The notes beneath the pieces are model-generated. The model made no database searches. It worked only from the letters and a program-made list of their open reading frames with translations, and had not been told where the DNA came from. A stretch of 10,845 nt of DNA from a virus (taxonomy: Duplodnaviria; Heunggongvirae; Uroviricota; Caudoviricetes): IMG/VR virus record IMGVR_UViG_2531839579_000019, one strand, 5' to 3'. Position 1 is the first letter of the stretch. Every line of letters starts with the position of its first letter. Of this stretch, positions 246 to 10,845 are shown piece after piece. The position numbers were made by a program, and so were the translations under genes.

Positions 246-348
246 CGCCCGCTTTGCGGGGCGGTTTTAATGCAGTTGCACTGACACGCTCAGACCGCGC
301 CGGGAATGGCGCGGTTTGCAGAAAATGAGGCAGGGAAACGCATGCAAA

Positions 349-379
349 GCCATGCACCTTATCGATGCATGGCTTTTTT
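349..379. terminator. Rho-independent terminator hairpin between convergent genes
   Basis: Perfect 8-bp stem gccatgca (349-356) / tgcatggc (366-373) with a 9-nt loop, followed by TTTTTT (374-379) on the plus strand. On the minus strand it follows the psu stop but has only a short T tract. Confidence 0.6.
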
Positions 380-409
380 CAGTAAAAACGGGCGGATTTT
401 CGGGGAATT

Positions 410-982
410 TTACACTGACTGACGTGATGCCAGTTGCGCACTTTTACGCGAAAAAATCATGTTCTGCGCAGGGGTGAATTTTTCACGGCTGTCATCCACC
501 GAAGCCACGTCAGGCCTGAATCCGATGGTCGTTAAAATGTCGCTATCCTGTGCGGAATAATTAATTTTTTCACCCTTCGCAAGCCAGGACAGAAGGGCTT
601 CACGCAGGGCATCTGTGGCACGCTGTATGGCACAGTTTCGGGCAATGGCCGTCAGCTCACTGTAGCCCATCAGCTCCGGTGCCAGTGCCGCCGCCAGTGC
701 TGTGCCGTGCTGCTGCATAAAATCATTCAGCCGGTCGCGGATGCTGATGTGCTGAACGGCTTCATGCGAACGAATATAACGACCGGCGGCCTGATTCACC
801 TGCCATTTTCTGACTTCGATAATATTGCGTAATTCGTCCAGGCGACTGACGTTTCTGCCTTCTCCTGACAGAAGCCGCAGATATTCCTGTTCGGCCGCTG
901 CCAGCTCATTTTTGCGTTGCAGCCATGCTGCTTTGTTATTCTGACAGGTGTCAAAGGCCTGCTGTAAGGCTGTGCTTTCCAT
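410..982 (-). CDS. psu: Psu, polarity suppression protein (190 aa)
   Basis: Intact 190-aa ORF starting MESTALQQAFDTCQNNKAAW; the length and N-terminus match my recollection of P4 Psu. It is the last gene of a sid-delta-psu operon and ends next to cos. Confidence 0.85.
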   Translation of the reverse strand: MESTALQQAFDTCQNNKAAWLQRKNELAAAEQEYLRLLSGEGRNVSRLDELRNIIEVRKWQVNQAAGRYIRSHEAVQHISIRDRLNDFMQQHGTALAAALAPELMGYSELTAIARNCAIQRATDALREALLSWLAKGEKINYSAQDSDILTTIGFRPDVASVDDSREKFTPAQNMIFSRKSAQLASRQSV

Positions 983-1055
983 CGTTATCTCTTTCTCATC
1001 ATGCTGAAGAATAAAAATACGGTGTGCGGCGACGGCCGGTGTTAACCGGCAGCCC

Positions 1056-1556
1056 TCATTCCAGACGCAGCGAATATGATTGTGTTTTTAACCGTACTGG
1101 CGGCAGTTCCTGTTTTTCATGCAGGCGTTCTGCCAGTTCGTCCGGCGTGACCGGGCGGACAATGAAACGGTTGATGGTCTGAAGCGTTTTAAACACCAGA
1201 CCACAGCCCGGATCCGTGCACACATAAAAACGCTCGGTGACTTCCTGAGACAGACGCCGCGATGTTCTTGACAGTGCAAGGCCTTTACATCTCCGACAAC
1301 AATATCCGGTAACAAGCATTCTTTTCGGGCGTTTCATACTGCCGGAGGCTGACGTCAGTGAATCGCGGTATCTCTGTTTGCCTGAAATGTATTCCATTCC
1401 TGAATCTTTACTGTCAGAGAAAAAGCTTTCACTCGCTTCAAATGTCGCAGAGCAATAAATATTCCGGCACTGTGCAATCATTATCTTGGTGCCATCGTCC
1501 ATGAAATGTGCGCGACGGGTGTGAGCAACATGTCCACACGACGGGCAGTAAATCAT
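1056..1556 (-). CDS. delta: Delta, Ogr/Delta-family zinc-finger late-gene activator (166 aa)
   Basis: Intact 166-aa ORF with the Ogr-type motif C-P-x-C-x-H...QC-x-N-x-x-CSATF (MIYCPSCGHVAHTRR...AQCRNIYCSATF) and a second Cys-rich half (CCRRC...CTDPGCG), consistent with P4 Delta as a fused Ogr-like dimer. Its ATG overlaps the sid stop (ATGA). Confidence 0.85.
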   Translation of the reverse strand: MIYCPSCGHVAHTRRAHFMDDGTKIMIAQCRNIYCSATFEASESFFSDSKDSGMEYISGKQRYRDSLTSASGSMKRPKRMLVTGYCCRRCKGLALSRTSRRLSQEVTERFYVCTDPGCGLVFKTLQTINRFIVRPVTPDELAERLHEKQELPPVRLKTQSYSLRLE

Positions 1557-2278
1557 GACAGCAGTCCTCTGGCCTTAAGCTCTGCTCCCTGCTGGTCTAT
1601 TTTGTCCTGCCACACCTTGCGCTGTGCCGGTGTGCCTGCCACCTCATAATCCATGTGCGGGAGTGTTGCCGCTGACAGTCCGGTCAGCCGGAGAACCGGC
1701 TCGCCGGTGAGGCTGATTTGCATCTGTTTAATTTTCTGTTCCAGCGATGATTTCACCTGCTGCATGACAGCCTTTTCCGGTGCGACGTAGCCCTGATGGC
1801 CGGTGGTGTTGGCGAGCGGATTTTCCTGTACCAGAATGCTCAGATGCATTGCCCGGACAAGCGCCTCACAGGTTTCATTCAGGGCGTGTTCCAGCTCATG
1901 CTCTGCATACAGACTCAGAGGTGATGATGTGCCTTCCGGTAGGCGGTGGCCGTGCTGTCACACGCCCCTTTCAGGCGTTCCGTTCAAATTCAGCACCACG
2001 GCCAGATTGTCATATTCCTGTACCAGCTCCCGGCGTGCCACGCGCTCAATGTGGCGCTGTTTCAGCTCGTCGCTCAGGACACCACCGGCTGCACGAAAGG
2101 CGTGCGCCAGTCTCAGCGTCTTTCCGTCGGCCTGCGCCAGCGCATTTTTTTCCTGCTCTGCCCGTTCAATGGCCGTACGGTCTCATCCATCAGGCGGGCG
2201 TTCTCAAGATGGCGGCTCTGGCTTTTCCAGTTGTGCCAGTGCGGGTTGCAGATATTCAGGGATGGTGTTGTCAGACAT
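1553..2278 (-). pseudogene. sid: sid (capsid size determination) homolog, interrupted by frameshifts
   Basis: ATG at 2278 is preceded by AGGAG, but the frame stops after 24 codons (TGA at plus 2204-2206). Protein-like sequence continues in alternating frames, with at least four frame changes between about 1914 and 2224 and a second in-frame TGA. The C-terminal 98 aa (1553-1849) is in the starting frame. The 726-nt span is close to the 244-codon P4 sid. Confidence 0.7.
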
Positions 2279-2312
2279 TTTCCGGCTCCTCGTCACTTCA
2301 GGTTAAGAAAAT

Positions 2313-2368
2313 TGTGACGTACACCGGACAACAACACGACGCATTGCAGATGTGCCAGCCCTGACACA
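2313..2368 (-). promoter_or_regulatory. Psid-type late promoter region with two Delta/Ogr-type TGT-N12-ACA dyads
   Basis: Perfect TGT-N12-ACA at 2313-2330 and 2351-2368, centred 43 and 81 bp upstream of the sid ATG and 38 bp apart. This matches the P2/P4 late-promoter arrangement with activator sites near -55 and about -18. Confidence 0.6.
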
Positions 2369-2447
2369 GGAGACTCATCCTCAGACCGGCAAGCCAGGAA
2401 AAGGTCGCAGGAAAAACCGGCTTACTGTTTGTTTTTTTATATTTTAC

Positions 2448-2551
2448 TGTTCACCTCTGTTCACCTTAAGAAAAAAGATAAGTAATACAGTAAGTTAAAG
2501 GGTGAACAATCGCAGTAATGACTGTTCACCGTCTGTTCACCACTGTTCACC
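2448..2551. repeat. ori-like iteron cluster (TGTTCACC octamers)
   Basis: Five direct copies of TGTTCACC (2448, 2458, 2523, 2534, 2544) and one inverted copy (GGTGAACA at 2501), in the divergent region between sid and the rightward operon. The same octamer recurs in the crr-like repeats about 4.8 kb away. Confidence 0.7.
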
Positions 2552-2710
2552 CGTTGATGGGCTTTTTGTGCTGTTTACTACTGTTTGTTTTTATTAATTC
2601 GCCTGAATGAATAAGAAGAAACGATTTGTATTTCACTATAAAAATTACGAATTGCTTTAAGTGGCTTTAAATGACTATATGGTGGAGATGAACAAAAAAC
2701 ACACAGCCAT

Positions 2711-2728
2711 TGTAAGGCTGCCGGAACA
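2711..2728 (+). promoter_or_regulatory. Candidate Delta-binding dyad of a PLL-type late promoter upstream of vis
   Basis: TGT-aaggctgccgga-ACA (TGT-N12-ACA) about 110 bp upstream of the vis ATG. A second, imperfect CTG-N12-ACA lies about 35 bp downstream. Single perfect dyad only, so weak. Confidence 0.35.
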
Positions 2729-2830
2729 AATCCCCCCTGTTGCGTCTGCTGAAAATATTCACAAAATAAAGCGCTACCCGAAGCCGGACGGACTTATCCG
2801 GTGCTGTATGGACATTAACGAGGTAGCCCG

Positions 2831-3097
2831 ATGCAAGCTGTTTTTTCTTCCCCGTCTCCCGCCCCTGTGACGCCACTGATGCCGCTGCCGGACATCACGC
2901 AGGAGCGTTTTTTACGTCTGCCGGAAGTGATGCACCTGTGCGGCCTGTCACGCTCGACCATCTACGAACTCATCCGTAAGGGGGAATTTCCGCCGCAGGT
3001 GAGTCTTGGCGGTAAAAATGTGGCCTGGCTGCACTCTGAAGTCACCGCATGGATGGCCGGACGCATTGCCGGACGCAAACGGGGGTACGACGCATGA
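2831..3097 (+). CDS. vis: Vis/orf88, AlpA-family helix-turn-helix regulator (88 aa)
   Basis: Intact 88-aa ORF with GAGG 6 nt upstream. Contains the AlpA-type HTH signature RLPEV...[14 protein letters not shown]. It is the first gene of the rightward operon, as for P4 orf88. Confidence 0.75.
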
Positions 3098-3132
3098 TGA
3101 TGCCCGCTCTGCAAAAACTCCCTTTTTCTGGC

Positions 3133-3162
3133 TTGCCTTTTTCCGGCATTTGCGGATATAGT
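3133..3162 (+). promoter_or_regulatory. Candidate sigma70 promoter (PLE-like) at the head of the immunity/early leader
   Basis: TTGCCT (3133-3138), 18-bp spacer, TATAGT (3157-3162), immediately downstream of vis where P4 places PLE. Hexamer match only. Confidence 0.4.
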
Positions 3163-3225
3163 TTTTCCGCTGCCGCAAAATCGGCAGCCGGGCGTAGGAA
3201 CCCGTGTAACTCGTCGGCGACATAT

Positions 3226-3247
3226 GACGCGCCATGCGTCTTTTTTT
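3226..3247 (+). terminator. Short hairpin plus T7 tract in the early leader (attenuator/timm-like terminator)
   Basis: Stem gacgc (3226-3230) / gcgtc (3236-3240), 5-nt loop, then TTTTTTT (3241-3247). Sits about 75 nt downstream of the predicted PLE start, where a termination-based immunity mechanism would act. Confidence 0.45.
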
Positions 3248-3675
3248 GTGTCGCAATCAACGCCACAGAGCACCAGATTATGGTGTGGCGTGTGGTTTGC
3301 CGTGCAGGTATGATCCTGTTCGCAATCGCATGTTATGCCACTGAGTCAATGGTAGCTCAGGCGGGGCAGCCTCCGGGCTGGCCGGTTTCCGATAACGCCG
3401 GTATTCTCACCCCCGTCTGGGCTATCGCCATCGAGCGTGAGAACTCCGGCGATAGCGTCATTTACGCTGTTATCGGAGACTGCCTTATGGCTACGACCCT
3501 TACCCCCTCACACCCTGAATTTGTCTTTGTGTTTGCGGCTGTCCGTCGCGCAGACCGTCATCCCCGTATCTGATGCTTCGCACCGTCGCCGGTGATGAAC
3601 GCAGCGCCCGCCGTTCCCTTGTCCGTGACTATGTGCTCTCCCTTGCTGCCCGTCTGCCGGTGGTGGAGGTGTCCC

Positions 3676-3963
3676 GTGCGTAATAAAAAAGCCCCTCAGA
3701 CCGTCTCAGCACGTCATGACGCCCGTGAACACCTCAGCATTGAGGCTTACCATAAGCTCAACCGCGCCAGCGCCGTATCCCAGTTTGTTGGGGGTGATTT
3801 GATTCACCGTGAACTCTCCGGCCTGCATCAGCTCTACATTCCGCATATTTTCAGCTACCTGAATGAAGATATTGATTTTGTGCTGAATGAGCTGAAAGCC
3901 AAAGGCCTGTGCCGCGATTTTCTCGCCCAGCAGAAAGACCGGGGAGACAGGACGCATGTTTGA
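3676..3963 (+). CDS. Epsilon-like small protein (95 aa from GTG 3676; frame is open from 3592)
   Basis: GTG at 3676 is preceded by GGAGG (3665-3669) and gives 95 aa. The stop overlaps the orf151 start. Start choice is uncertain; the alternative at 3592 has no Shine-Dalgarno sequence. Confidence 0.55.
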
Positions 3964-4411
3964 TTTTCCCCAGCCCGGTGAGATTTACCGTTCTGCCGGT
4001 TTTCCCGATGTGGCCGTGGTCGGCATTCTGGAAGACGGTATTCCGTGGGAAATGCCGTACCGCTGCCCGGACATTGTCTGGAACCCGTACCGCCGTAAAT
4101 TCAGTATCCTTGTGCGTATCCTCGCTGACGGGCGCACCACAGACATCCCGCTGGGGCGTTTTCTGCGGGAATTTACCTGTGACCGTCCTGACCTGTTTAA
4201 ACGCAGCCCCGTAAACCGGCATGCGGTACTGAAAGAAATGGCCGGAGACCCGGAATTACAGAAATGGCGGGAGAAATATCTGGATATTTACCCGCAGGAC
4301 ACTGTTCCGGTCAGCCGGGCAGCACCGGTGGCGCGGGAATGGCGGGAAATTCCCCGCACGGAGCCTGACCCGGAAACCACCCCGGATAACAGTTACCGCA
4401 ATTATCTGTAA
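3956..4411 (+). CDS. orf151-like protein (151 aa)
   Basis: Intact 151-aa ORF with GGAG upstream, overlapping the epsilon stop. Size and position match P4 orf151 between epsilon and alpha. Confidence 0.75.
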   Translation: MFDFPQPGEIYRSAGFPDVAVVGILEDGIPWEMPYRCPDIVWNPYRRKFSILVRILADGRTTDIPLGRFLREFTCDRPDLFKRSPVNRHAVLKEMAGDPELQKWREKYLDIYPQDTVPVSRAAPVAREWREIPRTEPDPETTPDNSYRNYL

Positions 4412-4546
4412 TTAAAAAACGACACCCGAAAAATTAAATGTGCGTATTCGCGCAGGGATACGCACGTCTTCAGGAGACGCAGATATGCCTTATCAGTTAA
4501 TGCAACCGGCACGGAATGCAGTCATCTGTCACAGGGAGGAAAGCAA

Positions 4547-4866
4547 ATGAAAACACCCTTACCGCCCGTCTTACGCGCTGCCCTTTACCGTCGCGCTGTC
4601 GCCTGTGCCTGGCTGACCGTGTGCGAACGTCAGCACCGCTACCCGCATCTCACCCTTGATCACTGGAGGCGGCCATCGCCGCTGAGCTGGAAGGCTTTTA
4701 TCTGCGCCAGCACGGTGAGGAAAAAGGGCGTCAGATAGCCTGTGCCCTGCTGGAAGATTTAATGGAATCCGGCCCCCTGAAGGCCGCGCCGTCGCTGTCC
4801 TTTCTCGGGCTGGTTGTGATGGATGAACTCTGTGCCCGTCACATAAAAGCGCCGGTACTGCACTGA
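4547..4866 (+). pseudogene. orf106-like small ORF upstream of alpha, with one apparent 1-nt frameshift
   Basis: ATG 4547 is preceded by GGGAGGA. The frame reads 63 aa, then protein-like sequence continues in another frame from about 4663 ([33 protein letters not shown]...) to TGA 4864-4866. Restoring one base near 4655-4665 would give a continuous 106-codon ORF. Confidence 0.5.
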
Positions 4867-4880
4867 AGGAGAACAACACC

Positions 4881-7210
4881 ATGAAAATGAACGTAACCGC
4901 CACCGTCAGCCATGCGCTCGGCCACTGGCCGCGTATTCTCCCGGCGCTGGGGATTCAGGTGCTGAAAAACCGTCATCAGCCCTGTCCGGTCTGTGGCGGG
5001 AGTGACCGCTTCCGTTTTGATGACAGGGAGGGGCGCGGCACCTGGTACTGCAATCAGTGTGGTGCCGGTGACGGCCTGAAACTGGTTGAAAAGGTGTTTG
5101 GTGTTTCCCCGTCCGACGCGGCCACAAAGGTGGCTGCCGTGACCGGCAGCCTGCCCCCGACTGACCCGGCAGTGACGGCTGCCGCCGGTGCTGAAACAGA
5201 CGCTGCCCGGAAGAACGCCGCCGCACTGGCACAAACCCTGATGGCGAAAACCCGTCCCGGAACCGGTAACGCCTACCTGACCCGCAAGGGCTTTCCCGGC
5301 CGGGAATGCCGGATGCTGACCGGCACACACAGAGCCGGTGGCGTGAGCTGGCGCCCGGTGACCTTGTGGTGCCACTGTATGACGACAGCGGCGAACTGGT
5401 TAACCTTCAGTTAATCAGTGCTGACGGCCGTAAGCGCACCCTGAAAGGCGGACAGGTCAGGGGCACCTGTCACACCCTTGAAGGACAGAATCAGGCCGGA
5501 AAACGTCTGTGGATAGCGGAGGGATACGCGACCGCACTTACCGTCATCACCTGACCGGTGAAACGGTGATGGTGGCGCTTTCTTCCGTGAACCTCCTTTC
5601 TCTGGCCAGCCTTGCCCGGCAGAAGCATCCGGCCTGTCAGATTGTCCTTGCCGCAGACCGTGACCTCAGCGGTGACGGCCAGAAAAAAGCCGCCGCAGCC
5701 GCAGATGCGTGTGAGGGCGTTGTTGCCCTGCCGCCGGTCTTCGGTGACTGGAATGATGCCTTCACGCAGTACGGCGGGGAGGCCACCCGTAAGGCCATTT
5801 ACGATGCCATCCGGCCACCGGCTGAAAGCCCGTTCGACACCATGAGCGAAGCAGAGTTTTCCGCCATGAGTACCAGCGAAAAGGCCATGCGTATCTATGA
5901 GCATTACGGCGAGGCGCTCGCGGTCGATGCCAACGGCCAGCTTCTGTCCCGTTATGAAAATGGTGTCTGGAAGGTGCTGCCGCCACAGGACTTTGCCCGG
6001 GATGTGGCCGGGCTGTTTCAGCGTCTGCGCGCGCCGTTCTCCTCCGGGAAGGTGGCCTCCGTGGTGGACACCCTGAAGCTGATTATTCCGCAGCAGGAAG
6101 CCCCCTCCCGCCGCCTGATTGGCTTTCGTAACGGCGTGCTCGACACGCAGAACGGCACGTTCCACCCGCACAGTCCGTCACACTGGATGCGCACCCTGTG
6201 CGATGTGGATTTCACCCCGCCGGTGGACGGTGAAACGCTGGAACCCACGCCCCCGCGTTCTGGGCTGGCTTGACCGTGCCGCCGGTGGCCGTGCGGAAAA
6301 ACGCGACGTGATTCTGGCCGCACTGTTTATGGTGCTGGCAAACCGCTACGACTGGCAGCTCTTTCTGGAGGTGACCGGTCCCGGCGGCAGCGGCAAAAGT
6401 ATCATGGCCGAAATAGCCACCCTGCTGGCCGGGGAGGATAACGCCACGTCGGCCACCATTGAGACGCTGGAATCCCCGCGTGAACGTGCCGCGTTAACTG
6501 GCTTCTCACTGATACGCCTGCCGGACCAGGAAAAATGGAGCGGCGACGGTGCCGGACTCAAGGCCATCACCGGCGGCGATGCGGTGTCCGTGGACCCGAA
6601 ATACCGGGATGCGTACTCCACGCATATCCCGGCGGTGATTCTGGCCGTGAACAATAACCCGATGCGCTTCACCGACCGCAGCGGCGGCGTGTCACGCCGG
6701 CGGGTGATTATTCACTTCCCGGAACAGATAGCCCCGCAGGAGCGCGACCCGCAGCTTAAGGACAAAATCACCCGCGAGCTGGCGGTCATCGTGCGTCACC
6801 TGATGCAGAAGTTCAGCGACCCGATGCTCGCCCGGTCACTGCTTCAGTCCCAGCAGAACTCAGACGAGGCGCTGAACATCAAACGGGATGCCGACCCGAC
6901 GTTTGATTTTATCGGCTATCTGGAAACCCTGCCGCAGACCAGCGGCATGTATATGGGGAACGCCAGTATCATCCCGCGTAATTACCGTAAATACCTCTAT
7001 CACGCCTATCTGGCCTACATGGAGGCAAACGGCTACCGGAATGTACTCAGTCTGAAAATGTTCGGGCTGGGGCTGCCGGTGATGCTGAAGGAATACGGAC
7101 TGAATTACGAGAAGCGCCATACCAAACAGGGGATACAGACCAACCTGACGCTGAAAGAGGAAAGCTACGGCGACTGGCTGCCAAAATGTGACGACCCTGC
7201 AACAGCCTGA
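4881..7210 (+). pseudogene. alpha: Alpha-type primase/helicase, split into four frame segments by three frameshifts
   Basis: AAGGAGA 8 nt upstream of ATG 4881. Zinc-binding primase N-terminus (CPVCGG...RF...WYCNQCG), a Toprim-like segment (5306-5554), and a helicase part with Walker A GPGGSGKS (6119-7210). Frame changes fall within 5306-5414, 5509-5554 and 6119-6273. Total span 2330 nt, close to the 777-codon P4 alpha. Confidence 0.8.
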
Positions 7211-7226
7211 CCCTCATAACTCATCT

Positions 7227-7251
7227 GACCGGCATCTGCCGGTCTTTTTTT
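7227..7251 (+). terminator. Rho-independent terminator after alpha
   Basis: Stem gaccggc (7227-7233) / gccggtc (7238-7244), loop atct, then TTTTTTT (7245-7251), 17 nt after the alpha stop. Confidence 0.75.
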
Positions 7252-7267
7252 ATCCCTGAATCCCCCG

Positions 7268-7566
7268 AAGGTGAACAATCCACTGTTCACCCTTCACCGT
7301 ATATTCACCCGTTATCACACTGAAATTAAAAGAGAAAAACGAAAGGTGAACAGTGTGAACAATCAAATCAAAAAAAACTTTTTTCTTCCTGAGTGATTTC
7401 AGTGCGGAGGATTAATCACCGGTATGAGTCACACCGGCAGAATGCCGGAGGTGAAGAATCGAATGTTCACCCTTCACCCATTATTCACCACCTATCACTC
7501 TGAAATAAAAGGAGAAAACAGAAAGGTGAACAGTGTGAACAGTTCTTTCGAAAAAAAATTTTTTAT
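7268..7566. repeat. crr-like cis replication region: two ~117-bp direct repeats carrying the iterons
   Basis: Unit 1 (about 7268-7384) and unit 2 (about 7448-7566) are imperfect direct repeats with a 180-bp period. Each carries several TGTTCACC/GGTGAACA motifs and ends in an A-run/T-run. Matches the two-repeat crr downstream of alpha in P4. Confidence 0.7.
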
Positions 7567-7757
7567 GTGGATAAAAGATGCACTGGTTTGGATCCGAGCT
7601 ACGGATCCAAACTTACTGATTAAAAATGATTTAACTTTCCGATTTATTGATGGGCTGAAAATAGATTGGTCAGAAAAACAGTGGGGGCACAAAAGGGGGC
7701 ATATTTCATTGTTGTGTTTTATTATTTGTTTTTTATCATTAACTTATTTTGATGTTT

Positions 7758-7776
7758 GAGTCCGGCCTTCGCACCA
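7758..7776 (+). other. attP: att core resembling the 3' end of tRNA-Leu (leuX), with no tRNA body upstream
   Basis: gagtccggccttcgcacca matches the leuX 3' end GAGTCCGGCCTTCGGCACCA as I recall it, except for one missing G. The sequence upstream (7700-7757) is AT-rich and not tRNA-like. Lies 190 bp upstream of int. Confidence 0.55.
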
Positions 7777-7792
7777 TATAAAGTTTTTTTCA

Positions 7793-7876
7793 AGTCTACT
7801 CACGTCTACTTTAGTCCATAAAAACAGTAAATTAAGCAGGTTTTTTGCTTTTCTTAGTCTGTCCACGTCTACTTAC
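7793..7876. promoter_or_regulatory. Direct repeats between att core and int (candidate integrase arm-type sites / int promoter region)
   Basis: agtctactcacgtctacttt (7793-7812) and agtctgtccacgtctactta (7857-7876) match at 17 of 20 positions, 64 bp apart. Function is inferred from position only. Confidence 0.35.
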
Positions 7877-7965
7877 TTCTATCCACATATACCAACGAAT
7901 GATGGTATAACTGGTGGTATCTTCGGTTCGATTGATTTTGATACCAACAGCGGAGGTATCAACTG

Positions 7966-9216
7966 ATGGCACTTACTGATATCAAAGTTAGGACTACCAA
8001 GCCCTCCGACAAACCTTTCAAACTTACAGATGGGCAGGGTATGCACCTGCTGATCAACCCCAATGGTTCAAAATACTGGCGACTCCAATACCGTTTCGAT
8101 GGCAAACAGAAAGTTTTAGCATTGGGAGTTTATCCAATAGTCTCTCTTGGTGAAGCTCGCAGGAAACGAGATGAGGCCAAAAAGTTGGTATCTGATGGTA
8201 TCGATCCTTCCGAGAAGAAAAAAGCAGACAAGATCGAGCAGAGCGAAGCTCTGACATTCGAGGCTGTCGCAAGGGACTGGCATACTGCCTGTAAAAGGAA
8301 ATGGTCTGATTCCCACAGCGAGAGAGTTCTAAAAAGCATGGAAGATGGTCTCTTTACTGCTATTGGTAAAAGAAAAATATCCGAACTTAATACCAGAGAT
8401 CTTCTTGCCCCTATCAAGGCTGTTGAAGCTTCCGGGCGATTGGAAGTTGCTTCCCGATTACAGCAAAGAACAACGGCGGTAATGAGATATGCTGTCCAGA
8501 ACGGGCTGATAGATTACAACCCTGCTCAGGAGATGGCAGGAGCTATTGCGGTAGCTAAAAGAGTCCACAGGCCAGCTTTGCCATTCGAACGATTCTCAGA
8601 ACTTTTAGAACGAATTGATAGTTTCAAGGGTAGAAAACTCACGAAGTTAGCCGTGAAACTCACATTGCTCATTTTCATTCGTTCAAGTGAACTTAGGTTT
8701 GCTCGTTGGTCAGAGATAGATTTCGACAATGCCATGTGGACTATCCCTGGGGAACGTGAGCCATTGCCAGGGGTCAAACATTCTCATCGAGGCTCAAAAA
8801 TGAAGACCCCACACCTCGTGCCGTTAAGTCGCCAGGCTATAGAACTCCTCAAAGCTATCAAAGAAATCAGCGGTGAATGTGAACTTGTGTTCATTGGTGA
8901 TCATGATTTTAGAAAGCCTATGAGTGAAAACACGGTAAACAAGGCTTTAAGGTCTATGGGCTACGACACTACGGTTGAAGTATGTGGACATGGTTTTCGT
9001 GCGATGGCATGTAGTGCGTTGATCGAATCGGGAAAATGGTCAAGGGATGCTGTTGAACGGCAGATGAGCCACCAAGAGCGAAACTCCGTTCGTGCTGCCT
9101 ACATTCATAAAGCAGAACACCTTGATGAAAGAAGGCTTATGTTGCAGTGGTGGGCTGATTACCTTAATGCCTTGAAAGATAGGTTTATCAGTCCCTTTGA
9201 TTTTACAACAAAGTAG
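7966..9216 (+). CDS. int: P4-type tyrosine integrase (416 aa)
   Basis: GGAGG 9 nt upstream of ATG 7966. P4-family N-terminus (MALTDIKVRTTKP...YWRLQYRF...), catalytic-region H-x-x-R (HGFRAMA) and a tyrosine in RAAYIHKAEHLDERR. Intact. GC is visibly lower than the psu-alpha core. Confidence 0.9.
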   Translation: MALTDIKVRTTKPSDKPFKLTDGQGMHLLINPNGSKYWRLQYRFDGKQKVLALGVYPIVSLGEARRKRDEAKKLVSDGIDPSEKKKADKIEQSEALTFEAVARDWHTACKRKWSDSHSERVLKSMEDGLFTAIGKRKISELNTRDLLAPIKAVEASGRLEVASRLQQRTTAVMRYAVQNGLIDYNPAQEMAGAIAVAKRVHRPALPFERFSELLERIDSFKGRKLTKLAVKLTLLIFIRSSELRFARWSEIDFDNAMWTIPGEREPLPGVKHSHRGSKMKTPHLVPLSRQAIELLKAIKEISGECELVFIGDHDFRKPMSENTVNKALRSMGYDTTVEVCGHGFRAMACSALIESGKWSRDAVERQMSHQERNSVRAAYIHKAEHLDERRLMLQWWADYLNALKDRFISPFDFTTK

Positions 9217-9303
9217 CTTGATCAACGATTAACTATCCACTGGCATAGCCGTGTGATATGATTACAATGGCTATATTTTTAATTTAAATTTAATAGGTAA
9301 AAA

Positions 9304-10443
9304 ATGTCCACAATTAACCCCGCAATTTTTTCTTTTTTCTCTGGTTCAGGATTTCTTGATCTTGGATTTGAAAAAAATGGTTATGAAGTGGTTTTCGTGA
9401 ATGAATACCATGCTCCGTTTATGGATGCATATAAACATTCGAGGAAAAAATTAAATATAGCACCACCTCGTTTTGGGTATGCAGAGTGCAGTATTGAAGA
9501 TGTAGAACATGAAAAAATTAAGTCTTCTATGCTTCAACTTAAAAATGAGGGGCGATTGACTGGATTTATTGGTGGTCCACCATGCCCGGATTTCTCTGTA
9601 GCGGGTAAAAATAAAGGTCGAGATGGTGAAAACGGTCGGCTTTCACAAAGCTATATTGATATCATTCTTGAAATGAAACCAGATTTCTTTCTTTTTGAGA
9701 ATGTTAAAGGTCTATACCGTACCAGTAAACATAGGGAATTTTTTGACCATTTAAAAACTCAATTAGAATCGGTTGGTTATTGTTTGCATGAAAAACTAAT
9801 AAATTCTATTGAATATGGTGCTCCTCAAGATAGGCAACGAATCATATTGATTGGTTTCCTTGATGAAAAATATGCAAGCCAATTCAATTGGGGGCAAAGA
9901 GTCTACCCTGAAAGAACTGCATTTGAATATAAATGGCCGACGACAAACCAATTTTCAGAAAACACTTCTGTTATAAAACCAAAGGGTATCCCAGAAGAGT
10001 TAACAGTAGAGCATTGGTTCAAGAAAAACCAGGTTGATAATCATCCAAATGCAAAGCATGTATTCGCGGCAAGAGCAGGGCTTGCGAGGTTTTTGACTGT
10101 CGAAGAAGGGGATGATAGTAAAAAATCCTATAAAAGGTTGCATAGATGGAGATTTTCACCAACTGCTGCTTACGGTAATAATGAGGTACATTTACATCCT
10201 TATAAACCAAGAAGAATTACTGTTGCCGAAGCATTAGCAATTCAGTCTTTACCAAAAGAATTTGAATTACCTGCTTATATGACTCTGTCTAATATGTTTA
10301 AAACTGTCGGTAACGGTGTACCCTACTTAGCAGCGGCCGGTATTGCCAAATCTATTATAGAGCATTTAGGAATCGAATATGAGAGTAACTGCGGCGAACT
10401 TAGCACAGGCGATTGCCAATCTACCAAGAAACACGCAGTTTAA
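9304..10443 (+). CDS. DNA (cytosine-5)-methyltransferase (379 aa), intact
   Basis: Ordered C5-methyltransferase motifs: motif I-like FSGSGF, motif IV GGPPCPDFSVAG, motif VI FENVKGL, motif VIII QDRQR, motif X TVGNGVP. AT-rich; first gene after int. Confidence 0.85.
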   Translation: MSTINPAIFSFFSGSGFLDLGFEKNGYEVVFVNEYHAPFMDAYKHSRKKLNIAPPRFGYAECSIEDVEHEKIKSSMLQLKNEGRLTGFIGGPPCPDFSVAGKNKGRDGENGRLSQSYIDIILEMKPDFFLFENVKGLYRTSKHREFFDHLKTQLESVGYCLHEKLINSIEYGAPQDRQRIILIGFLDEKYASQFNWGQRVYPERTAFEYKWPTTNQFSENTSVIKPKGIPEELTVEHWFKKNQVDNHPNAKHVFAARAGLARFLTVEEGDDSKKSYKRLHRWRFSPTAAYGNNEVHLHPYKPRRITVAEALAIQSLPKEFELPAYMTLSNMFKTVGNGVPYLAAAGIAKSIIEHLGIEYESNCGELSTGDCQSTKKHAV

Positions 10444-10453
10444 TTATTTAAAT

Positions 10454-10845
10454 GTGCGAAATTCGGGAAGAATCATTGTAACGAATGTTCAACTTCCCGA
10501 AGGCCCAATAGAATTCAAAAGATTCGATCCAAAAAAGGGTGAGACACTGCATAGTTCTAAATCGGAAAGCATCTCCACACAAATGATGTGGAGATTGGCT
10601 AATGCTTTACAGGAAGATGTCCCTGTCAATTTGGATCGTATTTTTGGTGCAAGCTATAATACACGTGCTGTTCTCGAAAGCCTTTTGGCCCATACTCCTG
10701 AGTTTTATTGGTGTAAGCTTGATCGCCTTGAGGTAATGAACACTCAGAAAAATATTAAAAAAGGTCACAAGCACCTTATTTATAGACCAAATGACCCACA
10801 TGAAAATGGTGTAGCAATAGAACATACTACTAATGTTATAATTTC
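10454..10845 (+). CDS. Unknown ORF immediately downstream of the methyltransferase (3'-truncated by the window edge); possible functional partner
   Basis: Frame open from 10442 to the window end, 130 codons visible. Candidate starts are GTG 10454 (10 nt after the methyltransferase stop) or ATG 10583; neither has a clear Shine-Dalgarno sequence. Same strand and composition as the methyltransferase. No diagnostic motif in the visible part. Confidence 0.45.
   Translation, partial: MRNSGRIIVTNVQLPEGPIEFKRFDPKKGETLHSSKSESISTQMMWRLANALQEDVPVNLDRIFGASYNTRAVLESLLAHTPEFYWCKLDRLEVMNTQKNIKKGHKHLIYRPNDPHENGVAIEHTTNVII

Follow-up and report, generated by a model that had tools for sequence, protein, structure and literature searches.

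The window is the whole stretch of DNA that was analysed, 10,845 nucleotides; its positions 246-7777, between the cos end and the attP core, are 98.1% identical by megablast to the satellite phage P4 (X51522). The gene order, psu-delta-sid, ori, ORF88/vis-cI-epsilon-ORF151-alpha-crr-attP, is that of the P4 record, with psu, delta and sid on the minus strand, and ORF88/vis, the cI/Ash region, epsilon, ORF151, alpha and crr on the plus strand. The core set of P4-like satellites comprises int, psu, delta, sid, alpA/vis, epsilon and alpha (PMC8628076). The P4-like core genes in the window are collinear with those of P4, with sid and alpha interrupted, and the C4/CI RNA is present (Rfam); the element's own integrase gene lies outside the window, and the integrase encoded at 7966-9216 is part of an adjacent island. 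Identification of the window as a circularly permuted free genome was considered and rejected, given that there is no terminal repeat and no tRNA gene. The features of the sid operon, its late promoter (Psid) and the adjacent intergenic region are:

410-982, minus strand: psu, third in the Psid operon (190 aa; corresponds to the psu CDS of P4; Pfam Psu, E = 1.3e-88)
1056-1556, minus strand: delta, two-finger activator of the Ogr/Delta type, second gene of the Psid operon (PF04606 in two stretches, E = 6.9e-22)
1553-2278, minus strand: sid, capsid size determination, interrupted (nine 1-nt deletions relative to P4 in alignments)
2286-2291, minus strand: Shine-Dalgarno sequence of sid, GAGGAG, read from the sequence (GAGGA(G/A) in most related loci)
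2304, minus strand: predicted transcription start (A), 7 nt downstream of the -10 hexamer and 26 nt before the sid ATG
2311-2316, minus strand: putative -10 hexamer CACAAT, in a GCA(C/G)AAT block that is kept in all of the 20 unique upstream sequences
2313-2330, minus strand: proximal Psid dyad, perfect, centred at about -17.5 from the predicted start, its 3' half overlapping the -10 hexamer
2351-2368, minus strand: distal Psid dyad, perfect, putative Ogr/Delta activator site, centred at about -55.5 from the predicted start
2388-2413, minus strand: conserved 26-nt block TTCCTGMGACCTTTYYCTGGCWWGCC, at about -84 to -109 from the predicted Psid start
2446-2551, no strand assigned: type-1 iterons of the P4 origin, TGTTCACC, a repeat family labelled 'ori type 1 repeat' in X51522, between Psid and PLL
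2711-2728, plus strand: PLL dyad, perfect TGT-N12-ACA, in the divergent late promoter upstream of ORF88/vis (2831-3097)

A pattern search of the window identified perfect TGT-N12-ACA dyads at 2313-2330 (TGTGACGTACACCGGACA) and 2351-2368 (TGTGCCAGCCCTGACACA), the starts of which are 38 bp apart, as the earlier note had described. On the minus strand, sid begins with an ATG at 2276-2278, reading MSDNTIPEYLQPALAQLEK..., and the dyad centres (2321.5 and 2359.5) are 43.5 and 81.5 nt upstream of it, in agreement with the 43 and 81 bp claimed previously. The TGT-N12-ACA-type dyad that characterizes late promoters upstream of late operons is accordingly found in two perfect copies before sid. A consensus scan of positions 2150-2900 detected no sigma-70 promoter with a -35 element. 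When CACAAT is taken as the -10 hexamer, the predicted transcription start falls on position 2304, which would place the centre of the distal dyad at -55.5 and that of the proximal dyad at -17.5; with no -35 element and a weak -10, sigma-70 RNA polymerase would need an activator at this promoter. The distance of the distal dyad compares with 55-58 nt in the P2 record (AF063097), where activator sites are centred that far upstream of the mapped starts at four late promoters, and the half-site TGTGTCAG of P2 PO is common to Psid. The proximal dyad would be a second dyad near -18, as in P4 Psid. The TGT-N12-ACA consensus and the Ogr dependence of the P2 late promoters have been described (PMC3931495).

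Comparison with P4 shows zero differences across positions 2270-2469, a 200-bp interval that includes both dyads; given this 100% identity, the dyads are those of P4's own Psid promoter. We consider it highly probable (about 0.9) that the 56-bp segment spanning the two dyads forms the core regulatory part of Psid, the promoter for late transcription of sid-delta-psu in a P4-type prophage; its dyads are the activator-binding sites that have been characterised previously in the sid late promoter of P4. The proposal that the arrangement reproduces P2/P4 late-promoter geometry thus holds: the region is P4 Psid base for base, the distal dyad is conserved, and the predicted spacing matches the P2 annotation. 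In the 1995 study of Julien and Calendar (J Bacteriol 177:3743), Delta footprints were reportedly obtained at -55 in all six P2/P4 late promoters, together with, in Psid, a second in vitro footprint at -18, and Van Bokkelen et al. (1991) are said to have performed a mutational analysis of Psid. The -55.5/-17.5 geometry derived here agrees with these reported footprints at -55 and -18. Promoter or transcription-start annotation is absent from the GenBank and RefSeq records of P4, and an open full-text literature search returned no paper naming Psid and one review without promoter content (PMC6893505). The 142 bp at 2279-2420 were found in 982 of 5,426 complete E. coli genomes (~18%), and at at least 99% identity in 776 complete genomes. 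As a textbook promoter of a model satellite phage, the segment has little value as a discovery.

Ogr/Delta zinc-finger activators recruit RNA polymerase via its alpha subunit, as known from work on P2 and P4, and transcription from P4 Psid is known to depend on Ogr, Delta or a homologue, as well as on the polymerase alpha subunit. The sequence, from which we infer the transcription start, binding and activation at Psid, is consistent with a mechanism in which either the Ogr of a helper phage, infecting or induced, or the satellite's own Delta would bind the distal dyad at -55 and bring sigma-70 RNA polymerase to this promoter, which offers no more than a weak -10 (CACAAT). With delta inside the Psid operon, Ogr or Delta, once present, would set off an activation that reinforces itself. 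The proximal dyad, at about -18, overlaps the spacer and the -10 hexamer and may be a second, P4-lineage-specific Delta site; such a site would be accessory rather than essential, being absent from every other satellite lineage. Ogr and Delta activate the P4 late genes (PMC7552001, PMC8628076), and the element carries a cognate zinc-finger activator gene of its own. The claim that delta is intact is borne out by a 166-aa open reading frame with two Ogr_Delta zinc-finger matches, the product of which is 99% identical to P4 Delta (164 of 166 residues), with both differences located in the linker between the fingers.

For a phylogenetic footprint, a Sid profile search of species-representative genomes yielded 20 loci from Mangrovibacter, Scandinavium, Enterobacter, Citrobacter, Kluyvera, Klebsiella, Raoultella, Buttiauxella and other genera. 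In one locus (L003), Sid is 99% identical to that of P4, and in the remaining 19, the identity is 57-67%. The distal dyad is perfect in all 18 divergent loci for which upstream sequence was available, with its centre 76.5-82.5 nt from the sid ATG. Its consensus across genera is TGTGYCA-N4-TGSCACA, in which the central 4 nt are free, and conserved 7-nt half-sites around a variable centre are typical of a site bound by a dimer. The proximal dyad is perfect in the P4 clade only (P4, the window and L003); in all 17 unique upstream sequences from outside this clade, the corresponding element is TGT-N12-AGA. The -10 block likewise contains CACAAT in the P4 clade and CAGAAT elsewhere. A delta homologue follows sid in 20 of the 20 related loci. 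In each of the 19 loci outside the P4 clade, it encodes a one-finger Ogr-like protein of 67-87 aa, whereas the 166-aa two-finger Delta is confined to P4, the window and L003, such that the two-finger Delta coincides with two perfect dyads, and the one-finger protein with one.

These patterns bear on the function of the proximal dyad. Its symmetry could be partly incidental, given that the dyad is conserved in the P4 clade only and that its 3' half coincides with the -10 hexamer. The distal dyad might then be the sole functional activator site, and the proximal one a by-product of the GTTGTTGT and -10 GCACAAT blocks without any regulatory role, a possibility that deserves consideration even though we deem it unlikely. 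Outside the P4 clade, the conserved parts of the proximal element are the GTTGTTGTGT block and a -10-like GCAGAAT, which are not symmetric, as reflected in the TGT-N12-AGA found in 17 of 17 unique sequences. Moreover, the centre-to-centre spacing of 38 bp corresponds to about 3.6 helical turns, so that the two sites are on different faces of the helix, out of phase, and cooperative binding is not obviously favoured. Conversely, the footprint reportedly observed in vitro at -18 in Psid speaks against the by-product reading, as does the fact that the single C/G difference that completes the proximal dyad co-occurs with the two-finger Delta. The -18 dyad could be an innovation of the P4 lineage that appeared along with the tandem duplication of the activator; we offer this as a tentative and rather doubtful proposal, the association between Delta fingers and dyads being only suggestive, since it effectively represents one evolutionary event. 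Should the link be causal, a covalently duplicated activator bridging -55 and -18 would be a distinct architecture of activation or autoregulation within the family; the connection between the Delta duplication and the second dyad may already be implicit in the literature of the 1990s. Two usable by-products of the footprint are the cross-genus definition of the activator site, TGTGYCA-N4-TGSCACA, and the confinement of the -18 site to the lineage with the duplicated Delta.

The earlier note had further considered sid to be broken and, with the promoter and delta preserved, had proposed selective decay. The first part is correct for the window as given: nine 1-nt deletions within the first 370 nt, compared to 3 substitutions in the same interval, introduce a stop after codon 24. 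We consider it likely, however, that this interruption, as well as that of alpha, is an artefact of a collapsed or mixed consensus, rather than the result of decay. Alpha is also frameshifted, by five 1-nt deletions, so that the damage is not selective for sid. Overall, the differences from P4 include approximately 16 single-base deletions as opposed to 2 insertions, and 15 private 1-nt deletions are located at window positions 1918-2221 (sid) and 4659-6263 (alpha). None of the window's private deletions was seen in the 987 complete E. coli genomes that carry the region. Nine of the 15 coincide exactly with positions that vary among four reference variants (P4, L024, L025 and L031), compared to a background of 4.9% polymorphic sites (binomial p ~ 6e-9). 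For sid, the proportion is six of nine, and the window's gaps at sid positions 162, 171, 183, 300 and 369 each correspond to a substitution in L025. When reads of two related copies are merged, a consensus caller drops the variable base; gaps placed on variable bases are therefore the mark of a consensus drawn from such a pair of copies and not of mutational decay. Up to four copies of such elements are present in a single E. coli genome. In E. coli 504237, which is the closest among the complete genomes with this neighbouring island, sid (244 aa) and alpha (777 aa) are both intact.

Genuine inactivation of sid, with Psid and delta retained by selection, for example, for the manipulation of helper late genes, appears improbable against this background, and the selective decay proposed earlier is unsupported. 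What speaks for this reading, in addition to the interrupted sid of the window as given and the unchanged promoter and delta, is the existence of real sid truncations in the prophages L024 and L025, caused by one 1-nt deletion each, at different sites, and of a 98-aa sid remnant open reading frame in 163 blocks of the collection. The excess of deletions over substitutions in sid is, however, an unnatural mutation spectrum, and the damage to alpha, the placement of the private deletions on polymorphic sites, their absence from complete genomes and the intact genes of the most similar complete locus all count against it. The 200-bp identity of Psid to P4 reflects recent common ancestry and is no proof of purifying selection. 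Given the consensus-artefact signature, the pseudogenisation of sid and alpha in this sequence is unfit as evidence of prophage decay.

Larger deletions were observed in three other P4-type prophages, L026, L027 and L028. These three deletions are all different and share a left breakpoint inside sid (...CCTTCCGGTA|), with the equivalent of window position 1941 joined to those of 3566, 4560 and 4636, respectively; the right ends are different, TA/GTA microhomology of 2-3 nt being present at each, and all three deletions remove Psid, ori and PLL.

Elsewhere in the window, the immunity region at 3156-3500 is by far the part most diverged from P4, with 46 substitutions and a 9-nt indel, and is close to that of L025, which is integrated at selC. 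This suggests a different immunity type, swapped by recombination. Three RNAs are predicted in this region (Rfam):

3156-3208: c4-a1b1
3169-3246: isrK
3345-3432: C4 antisense RNA

To the right of the attP core (window 7758-10845) are the non-P4 integrase (7966-9216) and a C5 cytosine methylase (9304-10443). This right-hand island matches E. coli 504237 at 100% identity, and the P4 part of the window differs from the same strain at 133 positions; no exact copy of the P4 part was found among complete E. coli genomes. Given that the island directly adjoins tRNA-Leu in other strains, the P4-type prophage would be in tandem with another island at leuX. To the left of cos, positions 1-219 are AT-rich and unlike both P4 and strain 504237, and presumably represent variable cargo of the satellite's hotspot beside cos.

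The location of the segment raises the question of whether the dyads serve alpha, Vis or the P4 origin rather than an activator. The segment is inside the rep_origin interval of X51522 (locus 1816-2539) and only about 80 nt from the ori iterons. However, the annotated ori repeats (TGTTCACC and type-2) differ in sequence and are located elsewhere, the same dyad type occurs at PLL, and related sites are found at the annotated P2 activator sites, with no origin close by, making such an alternative role very improbable. The 26-nt block TTCCTGMGACCTTTYYCTGGCWWGCC, a possible Vis/AlpA site or portion of ori, is almost unchanged in 20 P4-like upstream sequences from more than 8 genera and is present as a single copy, with no second one within the window. 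A hairpin or terminator at 2388-2413 was rejected on inspection, the complementarity being perfect only in L006 and lost in P4. Plus-strand open reading frames in this part of the window (e.g., 1780-2364 and 2352-2498) were likewise rejected as genes and treated as non-coding because they are antisense to sid or located in the intergenic spacer and because the intergenic part contains indels in the related loci.

Altogether, we identified 6 TGT-N12-ACA matches in the window, compared to 2.5 expected. In first-order Markov simulations, two sites less than 60 nt apart occurred anywhere in 10.8 kb with p = 0.04, and at least two sites within one given 100-nt interval with p = 0.0003. Apart from the two Psid dyads, the matches are the P4 PLL dyad at 2711-2728 and those at 3205, 4407 and 7187, of which the first two are missing from P4 and the third is located in alpha; three such matches are in keeping with chance. 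The loose 6-base pattern is short enough to yield 2.5 matches per window, and chance would account for three of the six, but it is a negligible explanation for the two Psid dyads in view of the p-value for the 100-nt interval and of the invariance of the distal dyad across genera while its central spacer varies. The PLL promoter is divergent from Psid and 470 bp away. Its dyad shows three substitutions relative to P4, all in the N12 spacer, with TGT and ACA intact, and is centred at about -54.5 from the start predicted via the CAAAAT hexamer at 2761-2766.

Comparison with known systems places the segment closest to P4 Psid itself (X51522 / NC_001609): the sequence from sid codon 3 to the ori iterons, including the dyads, the -10 hexamer and the Shine-Dalgarno sequence, is the same, as are the flanking genes and their order. 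There is no change in the promoter, and the difference lies downstream, in the nine, probably artefactual, 1-nt deletions of the window's sid. P4 PLL, the partner of Psid, shares a perfect TGT-N12-ACA dyad about 54.5 nt before the predicted start; unlike Psid, it has one perfect dyad only, and its spacer in the window is unlike that of P4 at 3 positions. The Ogr-dependent P2 promoters PP, PO, PV and PF (AF063097 sites at 3057-3087, 10239-10266 and 17555-17583) have an activator site centred 55-58 nt upstream of the mapped start, comparable to the position predicted for Psid, and lack a -35 element, as does Psid; PO and PF also have the left half-site TGTG(T/C). However, all four P2 sites deviate from a perfect TGT-N12-ACA (PO/PP and PF have TGT-N12-CCA, and PV has TGT-N11-ACA), and none of the four promoters has a second dyad near -18. 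Perfect dyads are a trait of the satellite promoters, as opposed to those of P2. Finally, the Psid-equivalents of Klebsiella, Raoultella, Enterobacter, Citrobacter, Mangrovibacter, Buttiauxella and other genera have, in collinear arrangement, the same distal dyad, -10 block, GTTGTTGT block, 26-nt upstream block and ori iterons, with a delta homologue directly after sid, but differ from P4 and the window in that their proximal site is TGT-N12-AGA and their delta product is a single-finger protein of 67-87 aa, compared to the 166-aa tandem.
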